Shown piece by piece: positions 1,871 to 36,525 of a stretch of 64,000 nt of DNA (the first letter of the stretch is position 1; every line of letters begins with the position of its first letter). This stretch comes from Giardia intestinalis. Lineage: Eukaryota. Below the pieces are notes generated by a model. That model had not been told where the DNA came from. It ran no database searches and saw nothing but the letters and a program-made list of their open reading frames with translations. The position numbers and the translations under genes are program-made. The stretch lies in the NCBI GenBank assembly GCA_000002435.2, contig CM018791.1; one strand, 5' to 3'.

Positions 1871-4540
1871 CTACGAGACATCGCACAGACAGATGCTATT
1901 TTCCGCTATTGGCTCGGCGTATTCCATTACCTCAGACTCTATATATACCGCAAATGGTATTTTCAGGGAGCCTTCATCGATGGGTAAATCGTAGTCTGCG
2001 CCATTAGGTTCTACATCATAGCTTAAGTCCTTAATATAGTACGGAGGCATTGGTAGTGGTTGTTGACAAGTTGATGATAAGTTGTCCAGGGGAGCGGGGG
2101 CAGCAAGGGGCTCCTCCGCGCTCTCCTCGCACTCCGGGGTGGCGGCCCTCTGGTAGCTCTCGTCCTTCGCCGGGTCCAGGGGAGCGGGGGCAGCAAGGGG
2201 CTCCTCCGCGCTCTCCTCGCACTCCGGGGTGGCGGCCCTCTGGTAGCTCTCGTCCTTCGCCGGGTCCAGGGGAGCGGGGGCAGCAAGGGGCTCCTCCGCG
2301 CTCTCCTCGCACTCCGGGGTGGCGGCCCTCTGGTAGCTCTCGTCCTTCGCCGGGTCCAGGGGAGCGGGGGCAGCAAGGGGCTCCTCCGCGCTCTCCTCGC
2401 ACTCCGGGGTGGCGGCCCTCTGGTAGCTCTCGTCCTTCGCCGGGTCCAGGGGAGCGGGGGCAGCAAGGGGCTCCTCCGCGCTCTCCTCGCACTCCGGGGT
2501 GGCGGCCCTCTGGTAGCTATCTTCGCAGTATTTTGCAGCTAAGACAGAAGGCTCATCTCTGACCTGTTCAACTGTAGTAACAGTTTCTATAACCTCATAG
2601 CGGTTATAAATGTATTTATCATCAGTCTTTTCAGAAGGTGTTCCAGCCTGTCCTTCTGCTTCATACAAATCTCCCTCAGTAATAGGCGTTGGTTCCACCT
2701 TTGATGTAGCAGGCATGTGGTATGTGGTGTTTAATACTTGTCCATTCTCATCATAAATGGCTTTATCGCTAGCATTACTGTTCATCAATTCTGCTTCTTC
2801 TTCTCTTGAAATAATCTTTTTAAGAGGCATCGGCAAACTGCTTTCCCTGGTGGTCACTGGCTCTTCCTCACGCGCGAATAGAACAGGCTTTGTATTCGGT
2901 CGAGTATTAGTGGAATATCCAACTATACTCTTAGAAACATAGTTGGGTTCAATAATCGGATGTATGCTCTTGTCTGAATCTCCACAATAAAATTCTGGCA
3001 AGGGCTGGCAATAGGATTTGAAGCATGTCATAGAGCGTTTTTGGGTCATGCTGTCCCGATCATCTACCTGGTACGCTTCCCAGTCATCAGATGTAGGATA
3101 GACAGGCACTATCACCAAAGTTTTTCGTTGCTCGTTGACAAACTTTAAAATAGTGCCAAAGTCCAAAAGAGTGTCTTGCTCTGCTGTTATGGCATCCAAC
3201 AGCTGCTGAGGAGTCAGAAGAGGGACGGGAAGATCAGTAATATTAGTGTAACAGCCCTTTAGAGCATGAAGATGGGCATCCCAGCAGATTGGCAAATCAT
3301 CTCCAGCAAACACGGCATCAGCTTGTAACCCCAAAAGAAAGTAAAGGGATACGTCCTCATCGGACAAAGAGGACGTACGTGCTACACTGCTACATACCAG
3401 GTCACTGTCTAGAGGGCCTTGATCAACTCCATTCCGTGGGTGCTTCTGGTCGTACAGATCAAACAAGTCGCCAGTCTCATCACAGTTTATACATTGATCA
3501 TAGAAGATGTTAACAACTTCTTGTATCTCCGGAAGAGTCATCTCAGGCATAAACTTGAGAATCGCAAACACAAGTGCCGTTGTTTCCCGTGTATAGAAGC
3601 ACTCTTGTTTTAGATACATAAACCACGAATCCTCTGCCTTGTCTGATATTTTGATATTCGGGAGGCAGACAGGCTTGTCACAAAGAAACCTGCACGCGTT
3701 GGCAAGAGATGATAACTGAATGGTCAGCACTTTAAACTTAGTAAGAAGCTCAGTCAAGGCCTTTCTGCTGCCTTTCCCCGAACTCAGAAGAGCAGCCGTC
3801 TCATTCTTACAGATAATCCGCTCTTGAAGTAGCGTCCTAAAGAGTTTGCGGTATTCTAAAAGCGTATGCATCCTCTTTTGATACTCAACCGTGAGCGTAG
3901 AGCTTCTGTTGAGCTGAGAATACGCATAATCACGCTCTGAATAGGGGATTTCAAGAGCCTCCCACATACGAGTGAGTGATGCAACAGCATTGTGCGCCCT
4001 CAGAGCCATGGATGCCCCTTGGCCCGTCCTTGGCAAGAATTGGTTCCCACTTCGGGAGACAAGAGAGGTAGAGCCCCGATCCTTTGTCATGAACTTCTCT
4101 GACTTGTTGAGATTGTCTGTATCGTTATAGTATCGTGTCTGTGGGGAACAAATGCGTTCCAAATAAGGAGAATATTCCACCTGCTGCTCGGTAACAGACG
4201 CTTTTGGACTCCCGTGGCCATGCTTTGTAGATTTACGATAAGATTTGATGTCTGTATTTGGAGACTTTTGTAGTGGGCGGGTAATGGAGCGTGAGCGGAC
4301 ATTTGCCATGGTTGCCCCTTCTAGGTGCTTGCTCTGAATGCGGAGCATCTCTGCTTGCGACACACCTCGCTCCGTAGTCTTGGCCATCTCGACAATCCGG
4401 GCATTGTTCGGATTTGAAAAGAATGCCTTGAGGTGGGGGTCGCTTTCTGCATGGTATGACGGTGGTCTGTCACCAATTCTAGTGGTAAACTCTGGCTGCA
4501 ATCTTTCGCGTCGCGGTGCGCGGTGGTCAACAAAGCTCAT
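1871..4540 (-). CDS. Member A of a window-local paralogous family (uncharacterised conserved ~350-aa core), with five C-terminal 30-aa acidic/Pro-rich repeats.
   Basis: 889-aa ORF with a true ATG at 4540. Shared motifs with 26227-27714, 31739-34621 and 34606-36525: WEALEIPYSERDYAY, SSGKGSRKALTELLTKFKVLTIQLSSLANACRFLCDKPV, FLLGLQADAVFAGDDLPICWDAHLH, LPVPLLTPQQLLDAI, LVIVPVYP. Confidence 0.65.
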   Translation of the reverse strand: MSFVDHRAPRRERLQPEFTTRIGDRPPSYHAESDPHLKAFFSNPNNARIVEMAKTTERGVSQAEMLRIQSKHLEGATMANVRSRSITRPLQKSPNTDIKSYRKSTKHGHGSPKASVTEQQVEYSPYLERICSPQTRYYNDTDNLNKSEKFMTKDRGSTSLVSRSGNQFLPRTGQGASMALRAHNAVASLTRMWEALEIPYSERDYAYSQLNRSSTLTVEYQKRMHTLLEYRKLFRTLLQERIICKNETAALLSSGKGSRKALTELLTKFKVLTIQLSSLANACRFLCDKPVCLPNIKISDKAEDSWFMYLKQECFYTRETTALVFAILKFMPEMTLPEIQEVVNIFYDQCINCDETGDLFDLYDQKHPRNGVDQGPLDSDLVCSSVARTSSLSDEDVSLYFLLGLQADAVFAGDDLPICWDAHLHALKGCYTNITDLPVPLLTPQQLLDAITAEQDTLLDFGTILKFVNEQRKTLVIVPVYPTSDDWEAYQVDDRDSMTQKRSMTCFKSYCQPLPEFYCGDSDKSIHPIIEPNYVSKSIVGYSTNTRPNTKPVLFAREEEPVTTRESSLPMPLKKIISREEEAELMNSNASDKAIYDENGQVLNTTYHMPATSKVEPTPITEGDLYEAEGQAGTPSEKTDDKYIYNRYEVIETVTTVEQVRDEPSVLAAKYCEDSYQRAATPECEESAEEPLAAPAPLDPAKDESYQRAATPECEESAEEPLAAPAPLDPAKDESYQRAATPECEESAEEPLAAPAPLDPAKDESYQRAATPECEESAEEPLAAPAPLDPAKDESYQRAATPECEESAEEPLAAPAPLDNLSSTCQQPLPMPPYYIKDLSYDVEPNGADYDLPIDEGSLKIPFAVYIESEVMEYAEPIAENSICLCDVS
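2086..2517. repeat. Perfect tandem repeat, 90 bp x about 4.8 copies, in-frame inside CDS 1871..4540. It encodes ESYQRAATPECEESAEEPLAAPAPLDPAKD x5.
   Basis: CCAGG unit starts at 2086, 2176, 2266, 2356 and 2446. The copies are identical at the nucleotide level and diverge only at 2518. Confidence 0.95.
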
Positions 4541-4596
4541 GAATCTTAAAATCCTTATTGCAAAGCATTCTAAAAAGAATAATTATAGACAAATTA

Positions 4597-5235
4597 ATGG
4601 ATACTGCAAGAAAATTGCAAGAAAAGGTTGCTGAGCACGAACAAAAAGTCTTGATGATGAGTGGTTTCATGGGGTCTATTAATGCAGGCGATCTCTTCAC
4701 TAATGAGGAGATCGATACCATGGAGCCAAAGATGGCCCGACGCATTGTACGCCACATGTCTGCTTCTAATAAGACAGTCAGGCTTTGGTTCAAGCTGATT
4801 TTTACCGGACTGGAGCTCCTTCTCGCCTCTAATTATATTACTCTTTGCTCTTCTGCTCCAATATTTTCTAATCCCTCGCGCGTAACTCTTAAACTCTTTG
4901 GGGTTCACATACCTTCGTTTTTTATCTCAACAATCCCCTGGTTCACGCTTGCTGCTCAGCTGCTGGTTGCATTCTTTCTCATCTTTAACTCCCACAAACG
5001 CCAGCTGTTCTTCCTCCTCTATTTCACAACCGTCTTCTACGTATTGGCGGGTGTGCCTCTCCTCCTTCTTCATCTTCAAACTGATGAGCACGTCAGTCAA
5101 GTCTTCTTCTACGTCTGTGTCGCCGGGACTGTCATTAGCATACTCACTGAGAGGGCTTCATACAGAGCCGATCAGGGACTCTACGAACTTAAGCGAACAG
5201 TTATGGAAAGCAACAAGACGCGCTCTGAGAAGTGA
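4597..5235 (+). CDS. Hypothetical multi-pass membrane protein.
   Basis: ORF with hydrophobic helices (LWFKLIFTGLELLLAS, WFTLAAQLLVAFFLIF, FFLLYFTTVFYVLAGVPLLLL). The track start at 4558 is a TTG. The first ATG is at 4597 (AATTATAGACAAATTAATG, AT-rich). Confidence 0.4.
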   Translation: MDTARKLQEKVAEHEQKVLMMSGFMGSINAGDLFTNEEIDTMEPKMARRIVRHMSASNKTVRLWFKLIFTGLELLLASNYITLCSSAPIFSNPSRVTLKLFGVHIPSFFISTIPWFTLAAQLLVAFFLIFNSHKRQLFFLLYFTTVFYVLAGVPLLLLHLQTDEHVSQVFFYVCVAGTVISILTERASYRADQGLYELKRTVMESNKTRSEK

Positions 5236-5331
5236 TCTAATCCATATTCACTTCTATCTGTGTAAATGAGCTTTGCAACATGCACACTTTGATGCGACTT
5301 CGTGGCAACAGCAGAGGCGTGGCGCGTATCT

Positions 5332-6057
5332 TCAAGGATAGTCACCCGACTCGAGCGTGGTCACGCCTTCGTGAGCTATTTGTCGGGCACGGACCATGTC
5401 TACGCTCTCCGGCTGAGACGTCATGACAAGGAGCATGTCGGGATATTTGCGGACACAACTAAAGAGATCCTTGCAGGTATCTTCGTCCGCTATAACGGCG
5501 AAGTGAAGAGAGGTGTTTCCATTGATGCAGTAACGTGACAAATCTCTATGTAGATCGTCCAGGAGCTTATGCATACAGTACCCCAAATCAGTATACTTCC
5601 CTGATCGCTGGAGCCTAAGGTCCCGAGATGGTACCCAAACAGCGATGGCTAACTTCGCAGCGGATGGCTCTAGGCAACGGTAGAGATATGCGAGGACCAC
5701 TTCAAATGCTGTAGAGACCGTGGATAAAGCTCGCAGCGCCCTACAAAGCTCTGGTTTGTTCAATGCATGCTTGAAATCAGAAATCTTTCCTTCTTTTCCC
5801 TGGCAGCAATTGCAGCTTTTGTAAACGCCTATGGCATCATCAGTTATGCTTGCACTGTAGAAAACATCGCTCCGGCAGGAGATGCACTTAGCCAATTCAG
5901 GAACCATAGAAAGCATAAGCGGAGAGAAGGTGTACATAAGGTCGATGACGGTTTCTGCCTCTACAGTCTCTCCAACATAGACAGAGAGGTGCCAGGGCTC
6001 AGTGATCTTCCTGAGAAAAGCGTCGGAAGCCACCTCAGGTGCGTTGTCCCCCGACAT
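5332..6057 (-). CDS. Hypothetical Cys-containing protein (CISCRSD...KSCNCC), lying immediately downstream of the CenH3-like gene on the same strand.
   Basis: 241-aa ORF. The ATG is at 6057 (the track start 6060 is a TTG). No recognisable domain. Confidence 0.35.
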   Translation of the reverse strand: MSGDNAPEVASDAFLRKITEPWHLSVYVGETVEAETVIDLMYTFSPLMLSMVPELAKCISCRSDVFYSASITDDAIGVYKSCNCCQGKEGKISDFKHALNKPELCRALRALSTVSTAFEVVLAYLYRCLEPSAAKLAIAVWVPSRDLRLQRSGKYTDLGYCMHKLLDDLHRDLSRYCINGNTSLHFAVIADEDTCKDLFSCVRKYPDMLLVMTSQPESVDMVRARQIAHEGVTTLESGDYP

Positions 6058-6108
6058 CAATCGTTCAAATTTACAGGTCGAGTCAAAAGGTGGCAGAGGG
6101 GTGAGCAG

Positions 6109-6588
6109 CTACAGCATACTTCCATGAATGCCGTTCATCCATGGAGGACGCACTATTCTCATGTATATCTGTATATCTTTATCCATGATCGTGACGCGGT
6201 GGGCGTGGTTTGCCAGTATTTGGCAGTCTCCAAGCACCTGGGAAAGCATGGCTTCGGATGCTTCCTGCAATGCGCCGATTGCCTGGGCTTGGAAGCGAAT
6301 TTCGTTTCCTCCTGAGGGAAGTGAACACGTTATGTCACGTACAAGGCGTTGAAAGCAGGCGATGGGGATGACGCTAGTGACTCTGCGCTGCATGTTAGTG
6401 ATCTCTTTGCGAACCTGGGAGCCGGGTCGGGCACGTCTGGTGACGGCCTTTTCAGATTTCGATATAGCCTTGCGTGCGACGGTCTTCTTGGAAAGAATCG
6501 TCTTTCGAGGTGCATGTTGTCCTTTGCGTGCTGTATTGACGTGCACGCTCTTGCTGCGGTCCATAGCTGTGTTTTTGGTGCGAGCCAT
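6109..6588 (-). CDS. Divergent histone H3 variant, probably the centromeric histone CenH3.
   Basis: MARTK N-terminus. The histone fold [10 protein letters not shown]...[12 protein letters not shown]...[49 protein letters not shown] aligns with canonical H3 (RPGTVALREI...LPFQRLVREI...[49 protein letters not shown]). It has a longer, divergent N-tail and a 3-aa insertion in loop 1 ([12 protein letters not shown]), both CenH3 hallmarks. ATG at 6588. Confidence 0.7.
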   Translation of the reverse strand: [159 protein letters not shown]

Positions 6589-7651: not shown

Positions 7652-7679
7652 GCAGATCACAGTCTAACGAAGCATTGCC

Positions 7680-8996: not shown

Positions 8997-9075
8997 TGGT
9001 CAGCACAATTTTAGCTTTAGTCCTTTCAGAGTTTTGGTTTTAAAGAAGCGTGCTTCGCTTGCTCTGATTTACTCA

Positions 9076-9954: not shown

Positions 9955-9962
9955 GCCGCCAG

Positions 9963-9969: not shown

Positions 9970-10003
9970 GATGAGTGAACGGTGAGTAAACAGAGAGTAA
10001 ACG

Positions 10004-16581: not shown

Positions 16582-18489
16582 CTACGCCTTGCCCCTGCAG
16601 ATGAACCACCAGCAGAGGAACCCTACAAGGCCAGCCACGACAACCACCACAGCAACGGAGATCCCCGCTATGGCGCCAGTGGAGAGGCCGCTCTTGTTCG
16701 TGCTTCCGCCATTGTTATCGTTATCGCCGTTGTTAGTGCCGTCTGTCTTAACATAGCAGGTAACAGGAGTCGGCGCATTAGGAGACGAAGGAGCTTTACA
16801 GCTCACGCAATTAGGTACGCCTTGGATGTTACCACTTGTTTCAGAACACTTTTTACACTCTTTTCCAGTGTCAAGATAGTATCCAGAATAGCACTCAGTA
16901 CACGTCTTCACACCGCTATCGCCGCTGCACTTTGAGCAGTTGGCTGGACACGGAGGACACGCGCCTGTTTGAGGATCTGCATTCTGTCCATTGGCGCAGT
17001 TTGCACACTTTCCATTGGCCCCTGCGGCTATGCACAAAGTGTTACCTGGGAATGCCCCGGTTTTATAGCATCCGCCAGATTCTAAGAAGTATGCGCCCGT
17101 GCAACTAGTGCAGACTCCTTCTCCGGCCACACACTCCGCGGCTGCGCGGGCTGTTGTAGAGACGCACATGTCGTTTATCGGAACGAACCCTGTCTTGCAC
17201 CTGCTGCAATACTTGGAGCCCCCAACGACGGCCGTGCACTGACCAGCTTCGCAGTTCTCTGCGTACCTTCCCGTGCACTCCTGGATGCATTTGCCAGTAG
17301 TCGGATCGCCATCATGCTCAAGTACAGACCCGGGGTAGCAGGCTGTACAGGAGGCTTCTGCGTTGTCACTACAGTTTGCACATGACTCGTGGCAGCGGGT
17401 GCACACCTTGCTATTGGCATATGTGCCAGCAGGACAATCGAGCATGCACTCGTCCTTCAGGGGGCTCAGATTATTATTAGTACACTCAGAGCACGTAACT
17501 ATTGGACCTGCTCTTGCAGATGTTGCTTTGAGGGAGCACTTCTTGCAGTTGGCTATGCCACCCTTATCGGCTTCACTACACAGAGCACATACCTTCCTGT
17601 TACTATTCTGTGCATCGGTCATGGGGAAGAATCCATCCTTACACTCCTCTGCACTGGCACAAGAGGCTGTCCCCGATTCTGTCTTCAGATACTTATCTGC
17701 CTGGCACTCAGTGCACGTTGCAGGGCCGGCACTCTGTGGCTTAGTGCACTTGGCACATCCAGCGACGCCCTTCCAAGCACCAGATCCCTGAGTAGCATCT
17801 CCGCACGATATGCAAGGGCCCTCGCTCCCCTCTGTTGCTAAGAAGTACGTCTCTGCCGTGCACGACTTGCACTTGCTGACTGTCCCGTCGGTGCAGGTCA
17901 GGCAGTTATCTGCACATGCTGTACATGTCTTTCCTTTACTATTATCTACAAAGTATCCGCTCTCGCATGCTGTGCACGTGGCAGCCTTGGGAGTAGTAGT
18001 ATCACTTGCTTCTGTGGGCTCCTCACACTGAGTGCAATGCAATACGCCCTTGTACTTTTTATCGTTCTTAACTGTTATTTCCTCTTCGTCTCCACATGGT
18101 ATGACCGACTGGTGAGAGGCGTCTGCGCCCGGCGGCACGAAGTACCCAGCCTTAGCCTGCGTGCACACTCCATCAGTTGCTGTTTCACACATCGTGTTGC
18201 CAGGTGCCTGGCTATCCTTGTAGCATCCGCCCTTGTACATGAAGGACTTATTAGCGCACTGTGTACATACTCCATCTTGTTTTTGGCTACATTCGTTGTT
18301 GTCTGCTGAGCACACTCCGTCCGTTGGGGCAGATTGAGACCCACCGCCGTTGCACTGGGAGCAGTACTTCTTGCCGTTGATGACGGCGCTACAGGCCTTG
18401 CAAGTGTCGGGCTGATCACCAGAGACGGTTGTGCACTCCTCTGTCGCCAGTTGGAGCGCAAGGCCGATCAGCAAAAACGCGTAGAACAT
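16582..18489 (-). CDS. vsp: Variant-specific surface protein (VSP).
   Basis: Signal peptide MFYAFLLIGLALQLATEEC. Dozens of CXXC motifs and two GGCY motifs. C-terminal TM helix plus the invariant ...FLCWWFICRGKA* tail. The true ATG is at 18489 (the track ORF extends to an upstream TTG at 18717). The stop is followed by the conserved VSP 3' motif. Confidence 0.9.
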   Translation of the reverse strand: MFYAFLLIGLALQLATEECTTVSGDQPDTCKACSAVINGKKYCSQCNGGGSQSAPTDGVCSADNNECSQKQDGVCTQCANKSFMYKGGCYKDSQAPGNTMCETATDGVCTQAKAGYFVPPGADASHQSVIPCGDEEEITVKNDKKYKGVLHCTQCEEPTEASDTTTPKAATCTACESGYFVDNSKGKTCTACADNCLTCTDGTVSKCKSCTAETYFLATEGSEGPCISCGDATQGSGAWKGVAGCAKCTKPQSAGPATCTECQADKYLKTESGTASCASAEECKDGFFPMTDAQNSNRKVCALCSEADKGGIANCKKCSLKATSARAGPIVTCSECTNNNLSPLKDECMLDCPAGTYANSKVCTRCHESCANCSDNAEASCTACYPGSVLEHDGDPTTGKCIQECTGRYAENCEAGQCTAVVGGSKYCSRCKTGFVPINDMCVSTTARAAAECVAGEGVCTSCTGAYFLESGGCYKTGAFPGNTLCIAAGANGKCANCANGQNADPQTGACPPCPANCSKCSGDSGVKTCTECYSGYYLDTGKECKKCSETSGNIQGVPNCVSCKAPSSPNAPTPVTCYVKTDGTNNGDNDNNGGSTNKSGLSTGAIAGISVAVVVVVAGLVGFLCWWFICRGKA

Positions 18490-19149
18490 TGTGGCTCGAC
18501 GCTCTGTCACACAGAGATATAGCAGCTCCGTTCGCCAGTCCACCCCTTCATGGCATCTGCCTGTGCTGCATGACGCACTGGCAGGGAAGGCCCTCCACAG
18601 GCCTGCGGAGAAGCGGAGTCGTATCGATTCCACTCTTATGACCTGCCGCTCCGAGCTTCTGTGACTGGCCGGCTGTGAGATGGATTGATCAGTATAGGTC
18701 TCCCCCTTATGCTGCAAGGCGTACCATAGTAGTGGCTACACGGCGGCCATGCTTCGCTCTTCGCTGTGATGTGAGGGCTTCCATTGGCGTCAGCGACAGG
18801 CGGAGCTGGCTCGTCCTATCCCAGTCCTGTAGTGTCACGTAATCCCTAATCCGTCGGAACTTTCGGCACCATACGGCATATGGCTGCCCAGCCACAGAAA
18901 GGGTCGTCTTAGCGGTAGGCCGTAGGTAGGATGCACAGGAGCAGGCCTACACTCGCCCCAGAATCTATGTGCTAGCTTCGGTGGCCTCGCACTCTGCACA
19001 CCAGGCCGCTCCCGTCTAAGCGCGGCCAAAGTGAAAGCTGGGTCGAGAGGGGTCTATTCGCTGACCGCTGGACCGCGCCATCCGGTGGGCCCAGTAGTAC
19101 AACACACCGTGACAAAGTGAATCCAGCCCACCGGACCATTTAAAAAACT

Positions 19150-26226: not shown

Positions 26227-27714
26227 TTAATTTGTGCTTGAGTCTAGGGTAAGAGTTGTTTCTCGCTCTGTCATTTCCAGAGCCGTTACTAGCGTTGTAA
26301 GGGTTGACTGATCAGCAAATGTTTGCCCCATATGGTCAGCTGCTTCATTTTCTTCTTTATCTTTATCCATACTTACATCTTTTGATTCTCTTATGGAGCA
26401 CGGGGGGACCGCAAGTCTTGCAGTCGGCTCTAGACCTGTTGCACTTAAGGAGATTATGCGTGGGGCACTCACTTTAGCCTGGCGTGCAGTAGCTTCAGCT
26501 AGCAGGATATTATCGTCTTCAATGTTAGTAGATTTATCGACATAAATCTCGATATTTGAGTCGTTAGGAATGACCGGAACAAGTACCACATTGCATCCTG
26601 AAAGCCGAATATCAGACAGAACGCTACTGAACTCTATGAGTGTCTGTTCTTCACTCTTTACGGCATCTAAGATCTGTTCTGGTGACAGCAGTGTATATGG
26701 TAAGGAGCGGTTTCCGTAGAACTCTCCTTGTTTTGTGTGCAAGAACATGTCCCAGTTGACTGCAAGACAGTCGTGCTCAAATAGTGTTTCGGCCTGTAGG
26801 CCTAAGAGGAAATTTAAAGCAGCCTCGCCGAATTCTTCGCTACTGTAGTTTGATAACTGGATGTTTTGGCTAACATCTTCAACGCTTTCAACAATCTGAT
26901 TGTCGTCTTTAATCACAAATTGGTCGTCAGAATCTTTGTGTATTGTTTCATGGAAGTACTCTTTAACCAACTGAATATGCTCCTTATATGTGTACCCGGG
27001 CTTAAAGCAAAAGATAGTGAACAAGAGTGCAGTGTTCTCGACACTGTAAAGTCCTTCTAGTCTAAGGTAAAGCAGCCAATTGTACTTAGGAGACCTAGAC
27101 GAAATTCCAAAGGGCTGCAGATTGACAGGCTTCTTGCAAATAAGTCTTGCTAAATTAACTAGAGTGCTGATGAAAATGGTAAGCCGTTTGAGCTTCGTCA
27201 GGGAGCATATGAGAACAGACTTGGATCCCTTACCAGCAGCCATTATCTGCCTGACTAATTGTACAGTCTTCTGTCTGTCTTGAGATAATTCAACATAGGC
27301 ACGCTGGAGCTCAACAAGAGTCTTTAGCTTCGCCGTGTACACTTCTAAATACTCCGAATGAGACGAAAGAATAATGCTTGCATAGTTTCGTTCCAGTGGC
27401 GGTATATCTAAGGCTTTCCAAAGAGGTATGAGCGACCCAAATGGCTTACGTAGCCAAGCTGAAGACTCGGATGGTGACTTCAGTGGGCGCCTTTCACGAT
27501 GAGCTAGGTTTATAGACGAGTATATCTGCCTGTCTACCAGTCTATTAGCTTTGAGGGAGCCTGTGTGTAGTGATACGTTATCGGGAGAAAGCAATCGCGT
27601 CTCTCTTCTACTTCTGCCTCTTCCAAGCACTCTTTCTAGACTGCTGTTTTTTCCTGGAGAGGAAGAAATCCGATATATGTCCTGGTACGAACACCCGGTG
27701 GTGTGGGAAGACAT
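26227..27714 (-). CDS. Member B of the paralogous family (core domain only, no repeats).
   Basis: Motifs WKALDIPPLERNYASIIL, AAGKGSKSVLICSLTKLKRLTIFISTLVNLARLICKKPV, FLLGLQAETLFEHDCLAVNWDMFLH, LPYTLLSPEQILDAV, VVLVPVIP. The track start 27783 is a TTG; the ATG is at 27714 after an AT-rich leader. Confidence 0.6.
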   Translation of the reverse strand: MSSHTTGCSYQDIYRISSSPGKNSSLERVLGRGRSRRETRLLSPDNVSLHTGSLKANRLVDRQIYSSINLAHRERRPLKSPSESSAWLRKPFGSLIPLWKALDIPPLERNYASIILSSHSEYLEVYTAKLKTLVELQRAYVELSQDRQKTVQLVRQIMAAGKGSKSVLICSLTKLKRLTIFISTLVNLARLICKKPVNLQPFGISSRSPKYNWLLYLRLEGLYSVENTALLFTIFCFKPGYTYKEHIQLVKEYFHETIHKDSDDQFVIKDDNQIVESVEDVSQNIQLSNYSSEEFGEAALNFLLGLQAETLFEHDCLAVNWDMFLHTKQGEFYGNRSLPYTLLSPEQILDAVKSEEQTLIEFSSVLSDIRLSGCNVVLVPVIPNDSNIEIYVDKSTNIEDDNILLAEATARQAKVSAPRIISLSATGLEPTARLAVPPCSIRESKDVSMDKDKEENEAADHMGQTFADQSTLTTLVTALEMTERETTLTLDSSTN

Positions 27715-27911: not shown

Positions 27912-30900
27912 TTATCTTCGCTGTTTTCTGCCAGTCACTGGGAGATCCGTTGCTTCGCTTTGCGGCTGCGGATTAGCTGCTTCAGCACACTCTATTTCAC
28001 CGTCCTCATTATAAAACGAGGTTTTCTTGGTATCGCTTTGATAGACACTCTGCTTCTTAACTTGGCGCGGTCCTGTTCTGCGTTGATTGATGGACACAGT
28101 TATAGTGTCGCTTTCAGAAGGAATACAAGCGATGTTTTGGAGCACAGACGATGCTATGCGATTTGTACCTGAATTACTGTTGTCCTTATGGGACGATTCT
28201 TTAGTTCCTACGTGAAGTACTTGTGGGTCATTGCTGCTATTGTAGTGGGGATCAAGTGAGATCTGCTTGTCCCTGCGGACTACTGAAGACGCCAACTGAT
28301 CATTCCATTGACGACTATTAGATCCAACGGATGCACTCCCAGCTGGTCGATCTTTGGAAACCGACGGCTCTTGCCTGGAAGCCACTTTGGCTGCAGAGGC
28401 ATGAATAGCCGACTGTTCACCAGATCGGGCGCTGAAAACATCATCAGGGGCTGTGTGAACACTAATCTGTTCTGGGTCGCGGAATCGCGAGGGGTGATCA
28501 CTTGTAGGTTGATGTGCTTCGCTGAACAATCCCATATCCAGTTTAGATTCGGCTTCCGTTGGAGCAGACGTCCTGTGAGTCGAATAATCTGTGTGATACG
28601 ACGATATTGGACCGATCGTAAGATCTTGTGGCAAAGGATCATTGAGGGCTATTCGATGATTAATTTGTGGAGCAATCGATTCATGTGTAGTCGATGATTC
28701 AATGGAGGGTGTTCTAATAGGTCTATAGGACGTTTCAGAGGCAGGTTCAGAGGATGGCTTCTCTCTTTCCAAGCTTTTGACGCGCGGAGGCAATCGGGCG
28801 TGCTGAACCTTAGCAGGGGAATGATGCTCCTGAGTAGCCACAGCAGTCTTATGCTGTTCAGAGTTTTTGGTCCATGACATGTTTAACTCCTGAACCTGTA
28901 CATCTATCTCTTCCAATTGTAGGCTTCGCTTAGACGAACTACTAGGCTCCTTAGAGAAGTGCTTAATAAGGGAAGCCGGCTCCATTGAGATTGATGGAGA
29001 CCTGGTTTGATGTTGCTGGCTTGGCAATACTGTTGATGAACTAGATAATGCCGTTGAATGTTCTGTCGCCTGTGTGGACGAGTTCAGCTCTACCACAGGG
29101 ATGGAACCTCGTGCAACTGTTGCACTTTGAACGGTAGTGGCAGTGCATGCAAAAAAGTCTTGAGCAACATAAGGGTCAGAGGGATCCATCTTAGATCCCT
29201 CAGTAGGCAGATAAGAACTTGTATCATGAGATACATCATCTGGAGCAGGAGTCTTCTCTAAAGATGCCGCAGGGTTTGCAATACGTTTGGGAGAACAGAG
29301 AGTTCGGGAAGGCATAGTCTCAACGGGTGGGAGGGTAGTTAGAGAAGAAAGAGCTGGCTCAGTGAAGGTAGGCAGGGGAAGCTCTATAGTTGATACAACA
29401 ACTGGGCTGTTAGGAATCAAAATTGTATCAATATTTGTGGTCGTTTCATATAATGCAGCCGAGAACGAATCCTGCCGCTCATGTTTAGAAACATCAATAC
29501 TTCCAGGAATTATTTGAACGATAGATTGCTCTGCAAGGAAGTTGGAAATAAGATCGTCCTTGTGTTGTGGCTGAATGTTAGCAGGAAGGCTGGCATGGTT
29601 TAGTATTAAAGCTGGCTGTTCAAGGCTTGTAGTTATTGATAGATTATTAGTGGAATAGAGCTCGTCGATAATGGATGTTTCCAGTGGCGCTGTAGCCATG
29701 GCCTGCGAGTCCTGATCAGCATACATCTCTTCGATGATAGACTTTGTCACAGATGCGGAACGCAATGGTAGTGTAGGTGCACTGCTATGCATTTGCTGCA
29801 CATAATTGGACAGGCGCGGCCCTTCGGTAAATTGTGCCGGTATTGGGGCTTCCAAGTCTTCTAGTTGCAGACGAGATTCTTCTGCAAGCAGAGAGGAGCG
29901 TTGTGTTGGAAGTGTAGAGGTTGCCACCTCAGCCGTAGCGTTAGGAATTTGCAATGAACTTGAAGCCTGCGAGGAGGCGTGAAATTCGGCGAGGGAACGC
30001 GGAAATCCTTCTAGTTCGCTAGATGCATCCCTTGCATGTGACACCCGCACAGAGGGCAGCGCTTTCACAATTGATTTTTCAAGGGTAGTCGGAATTGTGC
30101 TTATATGGTGGACAAGTCCAGTAACGTCTTCTCCGATGACATCTACGGGAGTGAAGGCACGAGACAAGAGATACTCATTACTGTGTTGCGGAATAGTTGA
30201 ATGAGATCTGGAGATAGAAACGGCCGGAAGGGCTTTAGAGCTAATGGGGCCATCAGCCATGCTCATCTCTTCCAAGATAGAAAGATTGTTTTCGCGTACC
30301 TGACTATAGTTTGAAAATTGAGGTGGCGGGAGGTCTGGGAATACCAAATTGGTGCTGGCACCTGGAACTGTTCCCAGAATAGACGCATTAGCAGCAAACG
30401 GAACTGTTTCAATAAATGTATGTGCTGCTGTACAGTCAGTCATTATGTAAGGAGTGGATGGAGCTGAGCGCCTAGAAATAGACGGCTCCTTGGACCACAC
30501 GGTGGGCTTTGGTTTGCGGATTACAGTTGCTCGATACTCCTTTGTGGGAGGAATCGAAGGACTGGTGACCTGCTTGACCTCATTTGTAACAGAAATAATC
30601 GGCGGTGTCTGTTTGATTAATTCGTTAGCAGAGGTAGACACATGTGGAGCAGGTTGGTGAGGAGCCAGTTCCTTGAGAGTCTGTTCTGGTCGAGGTTGTT
30701 CGCAAGAAGGAGTTCTAGACCTCTTAGAAGAGTGCATAACTAAAGAGTCCGATGGGCTATGGGTTTCCTCATAGGTCTCCTCCGGCTGCTCCGCCAGTAA
30801 GTCGCACGTTTCAAATTCGTCTAGCTGACCTTCGCAACCAGGCTCATCCGGAAAATCTAACGGTTTATGTGCCCGTTTAATCGTGGATCGCGACAGGGTA

Positions 30901-31493
30901 ATAACGTGAGCTGGACTGGCGGGCTGAGGACAGAAACCTTTCGAGGAATCGCTAGATAGTAAACCCGGCTCTCTGGCAGTAGCGAATGTCATAGTGACCT
31001 CTGGAACCATAGTGCTCTGAGCTGAATTTGGTCTGGAGAGCTGAGTAGTAGAAGATACTGCTGGTGTTTCAGAGATGTCCATCAAGCTGCTGAGTACTGT
31101 TGTATGGTCCTGGAGTGGTTTATCAAACGACTTGCTTTCTAAATTAATAGTATTAATAGTTGATGGGTCAGCAAGAAAGTTTCGATGATGTGGATTTTCA
31201 ACCACGTGAGAATCAGCTGCAAATGTCAAAATCATCTGAGTTACAGTTACATCTTCGTCTAGTGTACTTTCAGTAGAGCTTCTTGATTGGACAGAAGAGC
31301 TTTCCTTAGAACCTAAAGTAGTAGAGGATAGAACTTGAGGATGCTCACCAGCGTTTTCCTGGGCAATTGATGAATACTGATCTTGAGAATTTTGTTTAGG
31401 CACTTCATTGGAAGAATGCTTGATTAAAAATGAAGACTCGTGAGTTAAGGGCCTAGATAACGAATTTTCTTCTGCCTTATTTTGTGAATGCAT
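27912..31493 (-). CDS. Giant Ser/Thr/Pro-rich low-complexity ORF (1,224 aa in the track; about 1,193 aa from the first ATG at 31493). Possibly the frameshifted C-terminal continuation of gene 31739..34621 (see findings).
   Basis: Uninterrupted 3.6-kb ORF. The track start 31586 is a TTG. The same frame stays open with no start codon from the repeat array (about 31836) down to 31586. Confidence 0.5.
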   Translation of the reverse strand: MHSQNKAEENSLSRPLTHESSFLIKHSSNEVPKQNSQDQYSSIAQENAGEHPQVLSSTTLGSKESSSVQSRSSTESTLDEDVTVTQMILTFAADSHVVENPHHRNFLADPSTINTINLESKSFDKPLQDHTTVLSSLMDISETPAVSSTTQLSRPNSAQSTMVPEVTMTFATAREPGLLSSDSSKGFCPQPASPAHVITLSRSTIKRAHKPLDFPDEPGCEGQLDEFETCDLLAEQPEETYEETHSPSDSLVMHSSKRSRTPSCEQPRPEQTLKELAPHQPAPHVSTSANELIKQTPPIISVTNEVKQVTSPSIPPTKEYRATVIRKPKPTVWSKEPSISRRSAPSTPYIMTDCTAAHTFIETVPFAANASILGTVPGASTNLVFPDLPPPQFSNYSQVRENNLSILEEMSMADGPISSKALPAVSISRSHSTIPQHSNEYLLSRAFTPVDVIGEDVTGLVHHISTIPTTLEKSIVKALPSVRVSHARDASSELEGFPRSLAEFHASSQASSSLQIPNATAEVATSTLPTQRSSLLAEESRLQLEDLEAPIPAQFTEGPRLSNYVQQMHSSAPTLPLRSASVTKSIIEEMYADQDSQAMATAPLETSIIDELYSTNNLSITTSLEQPALILNHASLPANIQPQHKDDLISNFLAEQSIVQIIPGSIDVSKHERQDSFSAALYETTTNIDTILIPNSPVVVSTIELPLPTFTEPALSSLTTLPPVETMPSRTLCSPKRIANPAASLEKTPAPDDVSHDTSSYLPTEGSKMDPSDPYVAQDFFACTATTVQSATVARGSIPVVELNSSTQATEHSTALSSSSTVLPSQQHQTRSPSISMEPASLIKHFSKEPSSSSKRSLQLEEIDVQVQELNMSWTKNSEQHKTAVATQEHHSPAKVQHARLPPRVKSLEREKPSSEPASETSYRPIRTPSIESSTTHESIAPQINHRIALNDPLPQDLTIGPISSYHTDYSTHRTSAPTEAESKLDMGLFSEAHQPTSDHPSRFRDPEQISVHTAPDDVFSARSGEQSAIHASAAKVASRQEPSVSKDRPAGSASVGSNSRQWNDQLASSVVRRDKQISLDPHYNSSNDPQVLHVGTKESSHKDNSNSGTNRIASSVLQNIACIPSESDTITVSINQRRTGPRQVKKQSVYQSDTKKTSFYNEDGEIECAEAANPQPQSEATDLPVTGRKQRR

Positions 31494-31738
31494 AAAGTTC
31501 TCAATCAAAATATCGTAAGAAGTATCTCCATTACCATAAACATCTGTATTTAGCAAAGTATCCTCACACACCGTGTCTTCTGCCAAGGGCTTCTTTTGGT
31601 TTGTTCTCGATGCATCGGTAGGTTTTAATTTCCGTAAAGGTGGAAGGGATGATAAGGAATACGTTAGAACAAGCTCACTAACAGGTACATCTTCATTATC
31701 ACAAGCTGGAGTAAGTACTCCCTCATGTATATCGTTAA

Positions 31739-34621
31739 CTACAAGAAGGTCTTCGACGGGCTCCGCGGGCTCTGCAAGGCGTGCCTCCTCGGGCTCCTCA
31801 ACGGGCGCTTCAGGTTCTTCGACGGGCTCCGCGGGTCTGCAAGGCGTGCCTCCTCGGGCTCCTCAACGGGCGCTTCAGGTTCTTCGACGGGCTCCGCGGG
31901 GTCTGCAAGGCGTGCCTCCTCGGGCTCCTCAACGGGCGCTTCAGGTTCTTCGACGGGCTCCGCGGGCTCTGCAAGGCGTGCCTCCTCGGGCTCCTCAACG
32001 GGCGCTTCAGGTTCTTCGACGGGCTCCGCGGGGTCTGCAAGGCGTGCCTCCTCGGGCTCCTCAACGGGCGCTTCAGGTTCTTCGACGGGCGCCTCTTGCT
32101 GCTCGGGCTGTTTCTTTGCAGGAAGAGAAGAGTAACTCTTACTAGCAGTAAGCTGCTGTAAACCAACAGACTCAGGTTCCTTTCTACTTCGAGATTGTAA
32201 TAGCGGGGTCCCATCTGGTCGAGTAAAATCTGTTAGAGGAGTACTACATGGTTCGTCCAAGATGTCTTCGCGAATCCTAGATAAAAGGATGATATTATCA
32301 CAGACGTGCTCGTCGTCAACTTCATATACTTGAAAGTGTTTGGCTGTACTAGAATCCTCATAGTCTGTAGAGTCTAGACAGGCGTATCGCCCAGTACTAC
32401 TACTTCGTACTTGTGAAGTAGTGATCCTATCAAAATGACTAGAAGTGATCACCACACATGGAATGTATTCATCGTTGATATTAACTTGACTCTCAGGATG
32501 CTCGTTGTGTAGTAGATCAATTTCCCTTAGCAAGGATCCACCTGTCGAAAGAATATTTCTGGGTGAAGATATAGTTACAATAGTTGCGCTCATTACATCG
32601 TCTCGAGAGGCGATTTCCGTGGCAGTTGACGGCGGAAGCAACGTACACTCACTTATTTTGGGAATAAGGGCAGTAGCAGGAGAAATAATATTTAGATCTT
32701 TAGCATTGGTCGAGGAGCTTGGGGGCTGCGCAGTAAACTCAGCATATGGGTCCTCTGATGGTATGTCCAAACCTCCACTACTAGCTGCAAATGAAGGACC
32801 AACCACTTCTGGTTCAATAATATCTGGATCCTCATGATAACTTTGTTCATCATAGGTGCTTAAATTCTGAGTTGATGATATGGATGAGTGAGCTAGTGCT
32901 TGCATCTCTAGCGACTCCTCGTCCTTTGGAGGAGAAAGATTAACTATGGGAGCATCTTCGCGTAGATCATTGCCATCCATCTCAATAGTTGGTAGATCGG
33001 CTATCACTTCAGGTTGCGATGCAATCACAGCGGGAGATATTGACCCCGATGGCTCAAGCTGCACCTCGTGCTCATCAGGTTGTGGAAGTATAATATCCAG
33101 CGACGCCTTTAATGGTGGTAGAATAGTGGGCGCGCCTGATGAACCACTTAACGGTCTACTAGAGACATGAGTTGAAAGATGCTCATTAGATGCAAAATTC
33201 GCCTGTTCAGATTGACAAGCTTCGTTAGATACAGATGCATCTAAAGAAGAACGGTGGTCATCATCGGTAGAGCGTTCAATGTGAGCAATAGCAGAAGACT
33301 GTCTATGAGGAACAACACTTTCATCATCACCATCCGTTAGACGTCGTAGCAAGACTATTTTATTTGACCCTTCATCCTCCTGCGTAAAGATCCTGTCATA
33401 AACATCCAACGTATCCGAAGCTGAGAGCGGAGGAACAGCAACAATCCCACAATCACTTTTGTTTGCCTGCCTCATAAGATCGGTTAATTGGTTAATGGTT
33501 GTTCGCTCGACTGCAAATGCTGTGAACACTTCCTCTGGAGTCAGCTCCAGACAAGGAAGAGGAGCCTTGCCCATAGATGGCCCCCGCACCTGCTCTAAGT
33601 GTTCTACCCATCGCACCCCTAAATCATCTCCCTCAAAAGCAAACGTCATTGGAGGAGCAACCCCCAGTAGAAGAGCCAAGGATGCAAAATCATTGATAGG
33701 CGAGGCTGTGTCTACACCAGGGAGCATAACACATGCAGCTGGGGTATGAATGTTGTCATTTTGGTTTGAAAATTCTTCGTCTTTGACGCTATCCCACATA
33801 CCGTAGAAGGAAGATAACAGGGCTTTATGGTCAGATAAAGCTTGACTCTTGCTATACTTTAAAACAGTAAACATAACTGCAAAATCGACTTGATTGAAAC
33901 CTCTTTTCTTCATCCTCACGATGTAGTTTGGAGACTTCTGGGAAAATCCTGTTCTGAGAGGATTAAATGAAACTGGCTTTTCACAGATTACTCGTGATGC
34001 ATTGACGACAGAAACTATGGAAATTATAGATGACCGAAGAAGGAGGAGATCGTTTGCAAGGGACTTCCTGCTCCCCTTTCCTCCTTTCAAAGCGCTTTCA
34101 ATATTGCCAAAGGCGCTCTCATATTCCTGAATGCTTGTCAGGTATGCTTCTCTGAGATCTAAAAGAGCTTTTAACTTATTTATGTAGGTGGGGATCTCAG
34201 CCCTGTTTGCATCCAGTCGCTCATAAGCAAGATTGCGCTCTTCAATGCATACATCGAGGCTGTCCCACAGTGGTATAATATCTGTAAGAATATTCTTAGC
34301 CGTCTCAGTACGTCGCAACGGTGCTGGATTGTATGTGCGCGCAGTCTTGTAAGAAACGTCTTTTCTCGGCTTGTGCATTTGTTTTCTTGAGAGATCCGCG
34401 CTCATAAGCAAAGGATTTGCTTGCAAGTAGGGACTCTTGTAGGTGAACTTAGTGCCAGTCTGGGCAGACATGGCAGATGTATTAGTGACCAGACGCCCGC
34501 CAGAGGTAGGTCCACTATCACGACGAGACGTTCTCATTGCGTCAGTTTTTGGTGTGGATGATCGTAACACTGCCTGAGGTCTTGATCGGCCTCCAGTCCT
34601 CATAGATGAATCCGGAAACAT
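31739..34621 (-). CDS. Member C of the paralogous family, with C-terminal 22-aa acidic repeats (EPEAPVEEPEEARLADPAEPVE). The reading frame is disrupted inside the repeat array.
   Basis: Motifs WDSLDVCIEERNLAYERL, LKGGKGSRKSLANDLLLLRSSIISIVSVVNASRVICEKPV, LLLGVAPPMTFAFEGDDLGVRWVEHLE, VAVPPL. The track start 34702 is a GTG. Candidate ATGs are at 34621 and 34603. The tail ...ADPRSPSKNLKRPLRSPRRHALQSPRSPSKTFL* is the repeat read in the wrong frame after a 1-bp deletion. Confidence 0.6.
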   Translation of the reverse strand: MFPDSSMRTGGRSRPQAVLRSSTPKTDAMRTSRRDSGPTSGGRLVTNTSAMSAQTGTKFTYKSPYLQANPLLMSADLSRKQMHKPRKDVSYKTARTYNPAPLRRTETAKNILTDIIPLWDSLDVCIEERNLAYERLDANRAEIPTYINKLKALLDLREAYLTSIQEYESAFGNIESALKGGKGSRKSLANDLLLLRSSIISIVSVVNASRVICEKPVSFNPLRTGFSQKSPNYIVRMKKRGFNQVDFAVMFTVLKYSKSQALSDHKALLSSFYGMWDSVKDEEFSNQNDNIHTPAACVMLPGVDTASPINDFASLALLLGVAPPMTFAFEGDDLGVRWVEHLEQVRGPSMGKAPLPCLELTPEEVFTAFAVERTTINQLTDLMRQANKSDCGIVAVPPLSASDTLDVYDRIFTQEDEGSNKIVLLRRLTDGDDESVVPHRQSSAIAHIERSTDDDHRSSLDASVSNEACQSEQANFASNEHLSTHVSSRPLSGSSGAPTILPPLKASLDIILPQPDEHEVQLEPSGSISPAVIASQPEVIADLPTIEMDGNDLREDAPIVNLSPPKDEESLEMQALAHSSISSTQNLSTYDEQSYHEDPDIIEPEVVGPSFAASSGGLDIPSEDPYAEFTAQPPSSSTNAKDLNIISPATALIPKISECTLLPPSTATEIASRDDVMSATIVTISSPRNILSTGGSLLREIDLLHNEHPESQVNINDEYIPCVVITSSHFDRITTSQVRSSSTGRYACLDSTDYEDSSTAKHFQVYEVDDEHVCDNIILLSRIREDILDEPCSTPLTDFTRPDGTPLLQSRSRKEPESVGLQQLTASKSYSSLPAKKQPEQQEAPVEEPEAPVEEPEEARLADPAEPVEEPEAPVEEPEEARLAEPAEPVEEPEAPVEEPEEARLADPAEPVEEPEAPVEEPEEARLADPRSPSKNLKRPLRSPRRHALQSPRSPSKTFL
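31751..32079. repeat. Tandem repeat, 66 bp x 5 copies, inside CDS 31739..34621. Copy 2 (31817..31881) is 65 bp because it has GGGT instead of GGGGT/GGGCT.
   Basis: Unit CTTCGACGGGCTCCGCGGG[G/C]TCTGCAAGGCGTGCCTCCTCGGGCTCCTCAACGGGCGCTTCAGGTT. Copies at 31751, 31817, 31882, 31948 and 32014. Confidence 0.95.
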
Positions 34622-36525
34622 TTGGTCCGCGATTTTTAAAATCCGGTTATAAATACGCCGACTGTCTTGGGAGCTTAAAGGAGGTCCAAAGGCTGCGTTC
34701 ACTCACATCCGTCTCTCCTGCTTCAGGCTTGAGTTCACATTCTCTGCGACAAAACATGGCTACTCCTTCTCCTATTCGTAAGCATTCACAAAAGCAGGAA
34801 GAACGCCACGCCTTTTGGCGTTCACTTCTGCTAAAGTGTCCTGTGTTTGTTCCTGTTCAAGGGTCGACACACAAACTGCAAAAGATCACCGCTTACAGTA
34901 TCTCCAAGCATGTGAATCGTACACGAGCAAACAGTCAATTAAACCCAGTTAGAACCCCTCCCCTTTCCAGGTCATTAACCAAAGCTGTCCCTGGATCACT
35001 TCAAAATACCCGAACGCCGCGTGGCTCTGCTGTCAGCTCAACCATCCGGAACACACCTCCCATAAGAAAACCCGGCCTCACCACGTCTGTTCTTTCTAAT
35101 GACTCACTACTCTCACCATCCGGCACTACATCATTTGCAGTCTTCAAGCACCTCCCTAAGGGCTCTATAAATGGAAGTCTCTCTACGAGAAAGTCAACTG
35201 CAGAGCTGACTCTCTCAGAATGGACCCATCTCGAAGAAATGCAGACAGACTTAGGGCTTTGCGAGGCGGAAATTGCGTATTCAAAAGTTACGATCAAAAA
35301 CAACCCGGCATTGGGTAAAGCATACTTCCGTAGAACAAAAAACCTTACTGAGTACAATTCTGCGTATCGAATAGCATATAAGGAGCGTGCAATCGTCTTA
35401 GCTCGTGTCCAGAAAAATATAAAAGAGCTTCGTGGTTCACGCATCGCTCTGCTACGTTCTCTTGAGCGGCTTCGCGCTCTGACTATCTACATGTGCTCAT
35501 TGATTAATGCTGCTCGCTTGATCTGTGGGAAACCAGTAGTTCTGCCAGGGCTCAATTTATACAGTGAGCAAAACTGGCTCTATGACCTACGGCGTGAGCT
35601 CTTTATGAGCAGGAAAACCACCGCGATACTGCTTACGGTGTTCAAGCTCTTTGGTAGAAAAACATATGAGGATGTGCGCTCTGTTGTTGATGCGTATTTT
35701 ACATCGTGTATTACCGATTTTCCCCCTACTCTGTCACTGTCCGAGCAAGAGCTAAGCCGAACGCTTGGCATGCCACCTAATGAAGATGCTTCACTTAAGA
35801 GCACTATGTCAGCTTCTAGCGCCCCTGCGATCAACGGTAAGACAGCTAGTGATGATGGATCGTCGCAACCTACTCTTGAGGCAGCGTACATTCCCGACGA
35901 TAGCATGAATAACATGGGCTATTTCTCCAGAATGGACGGGCTATCTATGACCGATACCATCTATGATGAAGATGCAGATCTTGACAGAGTTACTGCGGGA
36001 GACGTGGCTCTCTACCTTTTGTTGGGTGTTAGCGCAGAAGAAATCTTCGACGGAGATGATTTGGCAGTGGCATGGAATACTCATATAGATAAAATCATAA
36101 ATACATATCAACGCCTATCAAATGTGGAATTAGAGGAGGTCCCGTCATTACAGGACCTGCCAATTGTAGACATTCCCTTGTTGACAGGGCTCCAAATTGT
36201 GGAGATGGCTCGAACAGAAACTTTTATTGTGTCTGATTACATAAACCTCCTCAAGGACTTCGATAACGTTGGCTTGGACGTTGTCAGAATACCAGTTGAT
36301 CCATCCGACCCCTTTGAGACGTATAGAGTTAACTTTGATCTATCTCTACTACGCGACAGTGCAGATCTAGCAGCATTTGAGTTAGATGGAAAATGTATTG
36401 GGTGCTCTTCTCTGTCCTCGAAAACTGCTCCTAGTTGCCCCGATGAAACAGCACATAGACCCAATAATTCTTCTCGCTCATCTGTATTTTCATTAACCAA
36501 GAGCATCTCAGTGGAGGAGAATTGA
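34606..36525 (+). CDS. Member D of the paralogous family. It is divergently oriented and its 5' end abuts or overlaps member C.
   Basis: Motifs KELRGSRIALLRSLERLRALTIYMCSLINAARLICGKPVVLPG, EQNWLYDLRRELFMSRKTTAILLTVFKLF, YLLLGVSAEEIFDGDDLAVAWNTHID, VVRIPVDP. ATG at 34606; an alternative ATG is at 34756 (MATPSPIRK). Confidence 0.6.
   Translation: MNPETFGPRFLKSGYKYADCLGSLKEVQRLRSLTSVSPASGLSSHSLRQNMATPSPIRKHSQKQEERHAFWRSLLLKCPVFVPVQGSTHKLQKITAYSISKHVNRTRANSQLNPVRTPPLSRSLTKAVPGSLQNTRTPRGSAVSSTIRNTPPIRKPGLTTSVLSNDSLLSPSGTTSFAVFKHLPKGSINGSLSTRKSTAELTLSEWTHLEEMQTDLGLCEAEIAYSKVTIKNNPALGKAYFRRTKNLTEYNSAYRIAYKERAIVLARVQKNIKELRGSRIALLRSLERLRALTIYMCSLINAARLICGKPVVLPGLNLYSEQNWLYDLRRELFMSRKTTAILLTVFKLFGRKTYEDVRSVVDAYFTSCITDFPPTLSLSEQELSRTLGMPPNEDASLKSTMSASSAPAINGKTASDDGSSQPTLEAAYIPDDSMNNMGYFSRMDGLSMTDTIYDEDADLDRVTAGDVALYLLLGVSAEEIFDGDDLAVAWNTHIDKIINTYQRLSNVELEEVPSLQDLPIVDIPLLTGLQIVEMARTETFIVSDYINLLKDFDNVGLDVVRIPVDPSDPFETYRVNFDLSLLRDSADLAAFELDGKCIGCSSLSSKTAPSCPDETAHRPNNSSRSSVFSLTKSISVEEN

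Follow-up and report, generated by a model that had tools for sequence, protein, structure and literature searches.

Four ancient paralogs of an apparently undescribed diplomonad protein family within a 64-kb segment of the Giardia duodenalis genome

Four open reading frames (ORFs), named here A to D, are located in a 64-kb stretch of contig CM018791.1 of Giardia duodenalis WB (the whole analysed stretch is referred to as the window). They raise the question of whether they encode members of a single protein family, whether this family corresponds to anything already named, and whether their proximity reflects recent local duplication. A preliminary description, made from the sequence, proposed that they are locally duplicated paralogs sharing an unrecognised core. 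A–D are ancient paralogs in an undescribed family confined to diplomonads; the core is a real and non-random feature, and the family appears to be undescribed. The coordinates first given for the four agree with the ORF list and translations (Table 1). Translations of A, B, and D are exact or near-exact matches to three WB proteins, all annotated as hypothetical.

Pairwise BLASTP alignments are all colinear and ~300–416 amino acids (aa) long, and paralogy of the four genes, as first proposed, is borne out by 24–34% identity over ~300 aa. The highest identity is between A and B (34%, E 4e-49 to 7e-41), followed by B and D (32%, E 2e-18 to 8e-14, with a second segment at ~6e-09), B and C (28%, E 1e-30 to 3e-26), A and D (25–27%, E ~1e-29), and A and C (25%, E ~1e-22). 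The weakest pair is C and D (24–25%, E 9e-5 to 4e-6, second segment ~4e-4). Multiple alignment of A–D reproduces the conserved blocks in the order and spacing originally noticed, with 32 core columns invariant in all four paralogs, including the E of the ER block, GS of GKGS, N..R..C.KPV, LLG, F..D.L...W, LP, and V..P. These blocks hold as a consensus only, and individual paralogs deviate from it. In D there is no W or ER in block 1 and RGSR stands instead of GKGSR, and in C the NWL, LTI, and LLTPEQ blocks depart from the consensus. Hidden Markov models (HMMs) of the family match the four window proteins with E 1e-86 to 1e-120, and sub-modules each match separately. The assignment of A–D to one protein family is near certain. 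The N-termini are divergent and disordered, as had been described, being disorder-like in composition and unalignable between paralogs. No fifth copy was found in the 64 kb by tblastn and HMM searches in six frames, which leaves exactly four.

The statement that the core is not a named domain also holds, as neither a Pfam match, a PDB sequence match, nor a PDB fold match was obtained. In Pfam, the four proteins had no match at E<=1, and 25 family members had no meaningful one at E<=10. Among PDB sequences, core profiles found no relative; the best hit, a coiled-coil fragment of KIF20A (E 0.04–0.08), was set down to coiled-coil composition. Since a word-index search with the four-core profile retrieved a C fragment only, an exhaustive HMMER search through 1.84 billion (1.84e9) representative proteins was used instead, and disclosed 31 relatives at E<=1e-3. 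Every named relative among them is a diplomonad protein (Giardia, Spironucleus, Hexamita), and each of these carries a hypothetical annotation. About half of the 31 come from read-archive or metagenome assemblies without names, and the breadth of the family is accordingly a lower bound. In the literature searched, no definition of the A–D family was found.

The family is defined by an N-module with LW..L.IP..ER.YA and GKGS[RK], followed by the KPV.LP hairpin and the motifs LLGL..F..DDL..W, LLTPEQ, and V.VPV..E.Y. It extends beyond the four genes first described, with at least four further members per Giardia genome in addition to Spironucleus and Hexamita relatives. Two N-module copies are present in each of the Hexamita inflata proteins P0046, P0050, P0054, and P0055, and several relatives match the N-module alone; because of these two features, the module behaves as an independent evolutionary unit. 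In addition, the very divergent members GL50581_2243 (P0051) and GL50581_2242 (P0058) have consecutive locus tags and accessions, and a second neighbouring family pair is therefore suggested elsewhere in the Giardia genome.

The presence of four copies in 35 kb, with C and D placed head-to-head, is what favours a recent local duplication burst, with C and D as an inverted duplicate pair. The paralogs, however, are only 24–34% identical, and no nucleotide similarity or inverted repeats were found among the A–D genes. Instead, each of them has its own ortholog in G. muris, with 37–44% identity and neighbour-joining bootstrap values of 97–100 per pair. G. muris orthologs of D and C are positioned head-to-head and that of B follows one ORF beyond, which is the arrangement in the window. 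The A ortholog is ~40 kb distant from the others on one G. muris chromosome and adjoins asparagine-synthase, myotubularin, PRK, and protein kinase genes, again as in the window. With 1:1 orthologs in a conserved arrangement, the cluster is therefore older than the split between G. duodenalis and G. muris. In the tree, A–D belong to a subfamily with bootstrap 100, which additionally includes sequences from Spironucleus and others of unassigned origin, and other Giardia members are more distant. C and D are not sisters and represent the most divergent pair, contrary to their proposed origin by inverted duplication. Orthology and synteny refute the recent burst, to which we give practically no credence; local duplication stands only as an ancient event.

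Table 1. Genes, cores, repeats, and other features in the window (positions in the 64-kb stretch unless stated otherwise), with orthologs and further family members.
Feature	Position or identifier	Strand	Basis and remarks
Paralog A = GL50803_0016230	1871–4540	(-)	889 aa; exact match KAE8302706/XP_001704165
Family core of A, aa 186–492	3065–3985	(-)	HMM envelope and alignment
A repeat, 90 bp (30 aa), acidic Pro/Glu-rich, 4.8 copies	2084–2518	(-)	Tandem Repeats Finder (TRF), 100% identical
Paralog B = GL50803_0061043	26227–27714	(-)	495 aa
Family core of B, aa 92–394, modelled sequence	26533–27441	(-)	AlphaFold2 (AF2) and HMM envelope
Stop-free segment starting inside the C array	27912–31862	(-)	Ser/Thr/Pro-rich, no Pfam match
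Paralog C as ORF	31739–34621	(-)	960 aa from ATG 34621; alternative ATG 34603
Family core of C, aa 112–410	33392–34288	(-)	Alignment and HMM
C repeat, 66 bp (22 aa), EEPE/AEPV acidic, 5.2 copies	31750–32090	(-)	TRF, 98% identity
Run of 3 C (+ strand GGG); other GAC-type junctions have 4	31833–31835	(-)	Sequence
Divergent C/D intergenic region	34622–34755		AT-rich stretch GATTTTTAAAATC at 34631–34643
Paralog D = GL50803_0016289	34606–36525	(+)	ORF 639 aa; WB annotation 589 aa
Family core of D, aa 204–576, ~70-aa insertion in variable loop	35215–36333	(+)	Alignment and HMM envelope
A ortholog, G. muris	P0031		44% identity
B ortholog, G. muris	GMRT_10388		37% identity
C ortholog, G. muris	ORF L001 754–6402		43–44% identity over ~440 aa
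D ortholog, G. muris	GMRT_11566		42% identity
G. muris family members	GMRT_11566, GMRT_10388, GMRT_14149, GMRT_10298, GMRT_12301		HMMER
G. duodenalis assemblage B family members	GL50581_2242, GL50581_2243		HMMER
Spironucleus salmonicida family members	SS50377_18423, SS50377_22391		HMMER
Hexamita inflata family members	many proteins		HMMER

The B core was modelled by AF2 from a 25-member alignment, with a predicted local distance difference test score (pLDDT) of 89.7 and a predicted TM-score (pTM) of 0.86; the five models ranged from 88.1 to 89.7. A model from a 9-sequence alignment (pLDDT 50) was kept out of fold searches. Helices are predicted at residues 5–13, 18–30, 32–72, 77–105, 125–131, 137–146, 155–170, 204–216, 229–237, and 257–283, together with a beta-hairpin at 109–116 and strands at 286–288 and 302–304. 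The region ~172–200 is modelled as a disordered variable loop, and this is the site of the ~70-aa insert of D. According to the model, the N-module (~105 aa) consists of a short helix ending in LW..L, an IP turn, and a 13-residue helix opening with ER.YA, and then of two antiparallel helices of ~30–40 residues with the GKGS[RK] loop between them. The N-module would be followed by the KPV.LP beta-hairpin, three short helices, the variable loop, and an alpha/beta C-module, predicted to carry LLGL...F..DDL..W, LLTPEQ, V.VPV, and E.Y. In the fold search against the PDB, no structure matched the whole core. The core fold is predicted with high confidence and is unlike any solved structure.

Partial fold matches were to generic three-helix bundles (spectrin repeats, syntaxin/Vti1 Habc, and designed proteins). 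They cover 80–126 of 307 residues at 4–17% identity, with scores usual for any long helical hairpin, and none spans the whole core. In view of such matches, the N-module could be a three-helix bundle of the Habc type, like syntaxin/Vti1 N-domains and those of tethering factors, and the proteins could regulate membrane traffic. The fold scores are, however, equalled by dozens of unrelated or designed helical bundles in the same list, and since SNARE motif, transmembrane anchor, and sequence support are all lacking, we consider this role highly improbable. In the four proteins, neither a transmembrane segment nor a signal-like N-terminus was found. The top hydropathy value in a 19-residue window, KD(19), is 1.69 and falls inside a core helix, by which a transmembrane or secreted protein was ruled out.

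In the 25-member alignment, E20, Y38, and P108 are invariant throughout the family, and R59, R102, L216, G217, E267, and P292 are nearly so. These conserved residues form no catalytic constellation, which is the reason to regard the proteins as probably non-enzymatic. An enzyme or nucleotide-binding core would be conceivable if the conserved Gly-rich GKGS[RK] loop, placed between two long helices, bound phosphate. The loop is unlike Walker A (G-x4-G-K-[ST]), and a P-loop reading of GKGS was rejected on this mismatch. Moreover, D and many relatives have only a degenerate GKGS[RK], the only invariants are E, Y, and P, with no His/Asp/Cys/Ser constellation, and no enzyme fold was matched; a catalytic core of this kind is hardly credible.

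Resemblance to known proteins is weak and limited to the first ~50 residues (LW..L.IP..ER.YA). The opening motif LW..L.IP..ER, found in one copy per Giardia protein, resembles that of PRC1/MAP65. MAP65/Ase1/PRC1 proteins bind and bundle antiparallel microtubules; they possess an N-terminal dimerisation domain, a spectrin-fold microtubule-binding domain, and a basic unstructured C-terminal tail. Using the human PRC1 sequence, checked against PDB entry 4L3I, the N-module HMM aligned with residues 241–272 (IRELWDRLQIPEEEREAV; TQIRELWDRLQIPEEEREAV...) with 16.6 bits. The hhalign comparison of the N-module with PRC1 gave P 7.5e-5 and a probability of 62%, and a second, weaker PRC1 match of the N-module was observed at residues 18–43. 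Against the profile of the PRC1 comparison, none of the window's 21 other long stop-free reading-frame segments scored above 18.7. In a PDB-wide search with the N-module profile, PRC1 ranked fifth among 177,635 sequences (E 0.048), with alpha-spectrin repeats (E 0.016) and designed bundles near it.

These features could be explained if the proteins were true, extremely divergent antiparallel microtubule crosslinkers of the MAP65/Ase1/PRC1 family (PF03999). Both groups have an [LI]W..L.IP..ER helix-turn-helix followed by helices of ~13 and ~40 residues, in sequence and in the AF2 model matching PRC1 residues 241–300 in length. In both there are all-helical bundles and a charged disordered arm, with phosphorylation control likely. 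The diplomonad family differs in its extra beta-hairpin and alpha/beta C-module. PF03999 was absent from the hmmscan lists of the four proteins and the 25 members at E<=1 to 10, and in PDB searches with full-core profiles no PRC1 chain came up at E<=10. Direct membership in MAP65/Ase1/PRC1 is, in our estimate, very unlikely.

Independently of the PRC1 resemblance, 2 of the 25 family members gave weak Pfam matches to PF11995 (DUF3490), the domain at the C-terminus of NPK1-activating (NACK/KIN-7) kinesins of plants. The best of them joins GMRT_12301 residues 12–82 with profile positions 9–79 of 161 (13 bits, E 0.089). For hhalign, the target was an alignment of collected real PF11995 sequences. 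The whole core matched it with P 1.8e-4 (probability 48.5%), no more than 49 of ~160 columns being aligned, and a 37-sequence N-module alignment matched with a probability of 68% and P 4.7e-5. The observed score was 38.0, compared with a mean of 13.5 and a maximum of 19.8 in column shuffles and 22.9 for the reversed alignment. Common to both are W..[LC].[IV][PS]..[EH]R.Y[AF] and the next Y..RL..L..L helix within the 49 columns, with identical W-to-R and W-to-Leu-heptad spacings. The remainder of DUF3490 is not aligned to the diplomonad core. PF11995 and PRC1 have no significant match to each other, and the family members scanned contained neither a kinesin motor nor another Pfam domain. Literature searches found no functional information on DUF3490 and nothing relevant on Giardia plus MAP65. 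Taken from these profile comparisons, the N-module may be a PRC1-rod-like or spectrin-like helical unit, which we treat as a lead; it does not count as evidence that the proteins belong to the one family or the other.

All four proteins share the same charge layout. Their N arms are basic and Ser/Thr/Pro-rich (pI 10.1–11.5, net +10 to +23), the cores are acidic (pI 4.7–5.4), and acidic tails are present in all four (net -53 in A and -67 in C). As a joint hypothesis, which is plausible although still tentative, we propose that the family proteins are non-enzymatic scaffolds or adaptors associated with microtubules. Attachment to an acidic polymer surface, most likely microtubules of the elaborate diplomonad cytoskeleton, would depend on the basic arm together with the helical, PRC1-like N-module, and the C-module would recruit partners. 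The acidic, fast-evolving, and repeat-bearing tails could serve as spacers or regulate the basic arm within the same molecule, and the paralogs might be used in different structures or cell-cycle stages.

Several points weigh against this proposal. The PRC1/NACK similarity spans just 32–49 residues and is under Pfam thresholds, the best PF11995 match of 13 bits being below the Pfam cut-off of 25 bits. The P-value for PF11995 is not independent, because this domain was picked from a library-wide scan. Polarity is reversed: PRC1 has its basic region at the C-terminus, whereas the diplomonad proteins have theirs in the N-terminal arm and end in an acidic tail. The fold comparison covers the PDB, and a structural relative may exist outside it. 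Literature searches by gene ID of family members returned false matches in reference lists only, and 16230, 61043, and 16289 are absent from the 608 tagged proteins of the 2026 Giardia localisation atlas (PMC13322205). In addition, a basic arm combined with an acidic tail suits nuclear or nucleolar proteins equally.

The last point corresponds to a nuclear, nucleolar, or chromatin-associated role, in which the N arm would be a nuclear localisation signal or nucleic-acid binder and the tails would be tracts for chaperoning histones or basic proteins. The distribution of charge agrees with such a role (N arms pI 10–11.5, with the net charges of the A and C tails given above), there are no membrane features, and no domain contradicts it. 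Nevertheless, the proteins lack any recognisable domain for nucleic-acid binding or chaperone activity, and the sole detectable similarities are to PRC1, spectrin, and a kinesin tail. By inference, restriction to diplomonads also suits a lineage-specific cytoskeleton better, and a nuclear role appears distinctly unlikely.

Giardia attachment and division rely on unusual microtubule organelles. A bolder extension of the microtubule-associated scaffold proposal, speculative and on balance rather unlikely, is that the family arose within diplomonads, or branched off from PRC1/MAP65-type proteins and diverged beyond recognition, with a new two-lobed fold that binds lineage-specific microtubule arrays and organises them. 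If so, the arrays would be the ventral disc, median body, cytoplasmic axonemes, and spindle, with the four syntenic paralogs specialised per array, and the family would represent a new microtubule-associated protein class and a parasite-specific target. Any cytoskeletal role would add a lineage-specific class of microtubule-associated scaffolds in Giardia. Lineage-restricted hypothetical families are common in Giardia, and should the microtubule/scaffold proposal fail, this would be one more orphan family in a genome rich in them. In either case, hypothetical proteins now constitute a defined family with a domain model, a predicted fold, ortholog assignments, and a testable hypothesis. The localisation study gives ~40% of the Giardia proteome as unannotated (PMC13322205). 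Its "diplomonad-conserved" hypotheticals belong to the same category, being lineage-restricted and unannotated.

We also observed an SPYL(Q/E) island in the basic N arms of A and C, which do not align elsewhere, at residues ~60–80 of C and ~122–133 of A. It is kept in the G. muris C ortholog (SPYLQRNPMLMS) and may be a linear motif.

Two of the paralogs, A and C, had been described as ending in tandem arrays. The 90- and 66-bp arrays are real, although in A the array is internal and is followed by a 71-aa non-repeat tail. The number of A repeat units is five in WB, two in DHA2, and one in short-read assemblies, the latter of which may have collapsed the repeat; the DHA2 units carry T-to-D and K-to-R variants. 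In C, the ORF stop does fall at the array, but this ending is probably artefactual, caused by a frameshift of one base. The junction CTTGCAGA[C/G]CCCGCGG recurs each 66 nt in the C array, and its fourth copy is one C short. Past this 3-C site, translation of the repeat in the C frame yields a basic peptide (RSPSKNLKRPLRSPRR...) and ends at the stop at 31739. The downstream neighbour on the same strand is listed as a 1224-aa ORF at 27912–31586; its frame, free of stops back to 31862, overlaps that of C within the array, with an offset of one frame. When one base is inserted, C and the downstream ORF fuse into a single ORF from 34621 to 27912 (2236 aa), with DLLVVNDIHEGVLTPACDNEDVPVSELVLTYSLSSLPPLR as the predicted peptide at the junction of array and tail. 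The 27912–31862 segment probably continues C, and the two annotated genes may be a single one. We infer that the frame break is an uncorrected homopolymer indel, which is preferred over a real truncation; if this is true, the C array is internal and its terminal position is an artefact. All short-read and 454 assemblies examined break at both edges of the C array, and the exact C protein, with three possible starts tried, is not on record.

A comparable situation is found in G. muris, where the C ortholog is an ORF spanning at least 1883 aa and missing from the called genes (region L001 754–9995, CM016925.1 ~1.997–2.008 Mb). Its acidic EEPEE/AEPAAEP array is of a type like that of C in the window but much expanded, to several kb. 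The core-plus-array ORF 754–6402 has alternative-frame stretches and overlaps the segment 6225–9992, which leads out of the array in the acidic frame and continues into a gene recorded as 894 aa. Frame breaks inside C arrays are present in both reference sequences, those of G. duodenalis and G. muris, and we flag a probable gene-model error in the two reference genomes, in which C is separated from a tail of 1,300 aa. Between the post-array tails of the two species no similarity was found. Repeats of A and C are evolutionarily labile, and the acidic EEPE-type C array is kept in kind in G. muris. A stretch of ~65 aa (SLHRVTDPSEPLSVLGSPEAPAQ...) occurs both before and after the G. muris C array, which suggests mis-assembly or a higher-order repeat.

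Concerning gene starts, the 5' ends of the C and D ORFs as first given overlap by 16 nt. The start of D in the WB annotation is M51 (34756). Because the similarity of C to its G. muris ortholog begins at residue 2, a start at ATG 34621 or 34603 is favoured. Giardia initiators are short and AT-rich. The AT-rich GATTTTTAAAATC stretch lies upstream of both the ATG of C and the WB-annotated start of D, and its region may be a shared bidirectional initiator for the two genes.

Finally, a variant-specific surface protein gene (16582–18717 (-), Pfam VSP E 9e-85) lies among housekeeping genes of the window, in a stretch that is locally GC-rich (53% vs ~46%). It is without a counterpart in the syntenic G. 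muris segment, in which the myotubularin and PRK genes adjoin.

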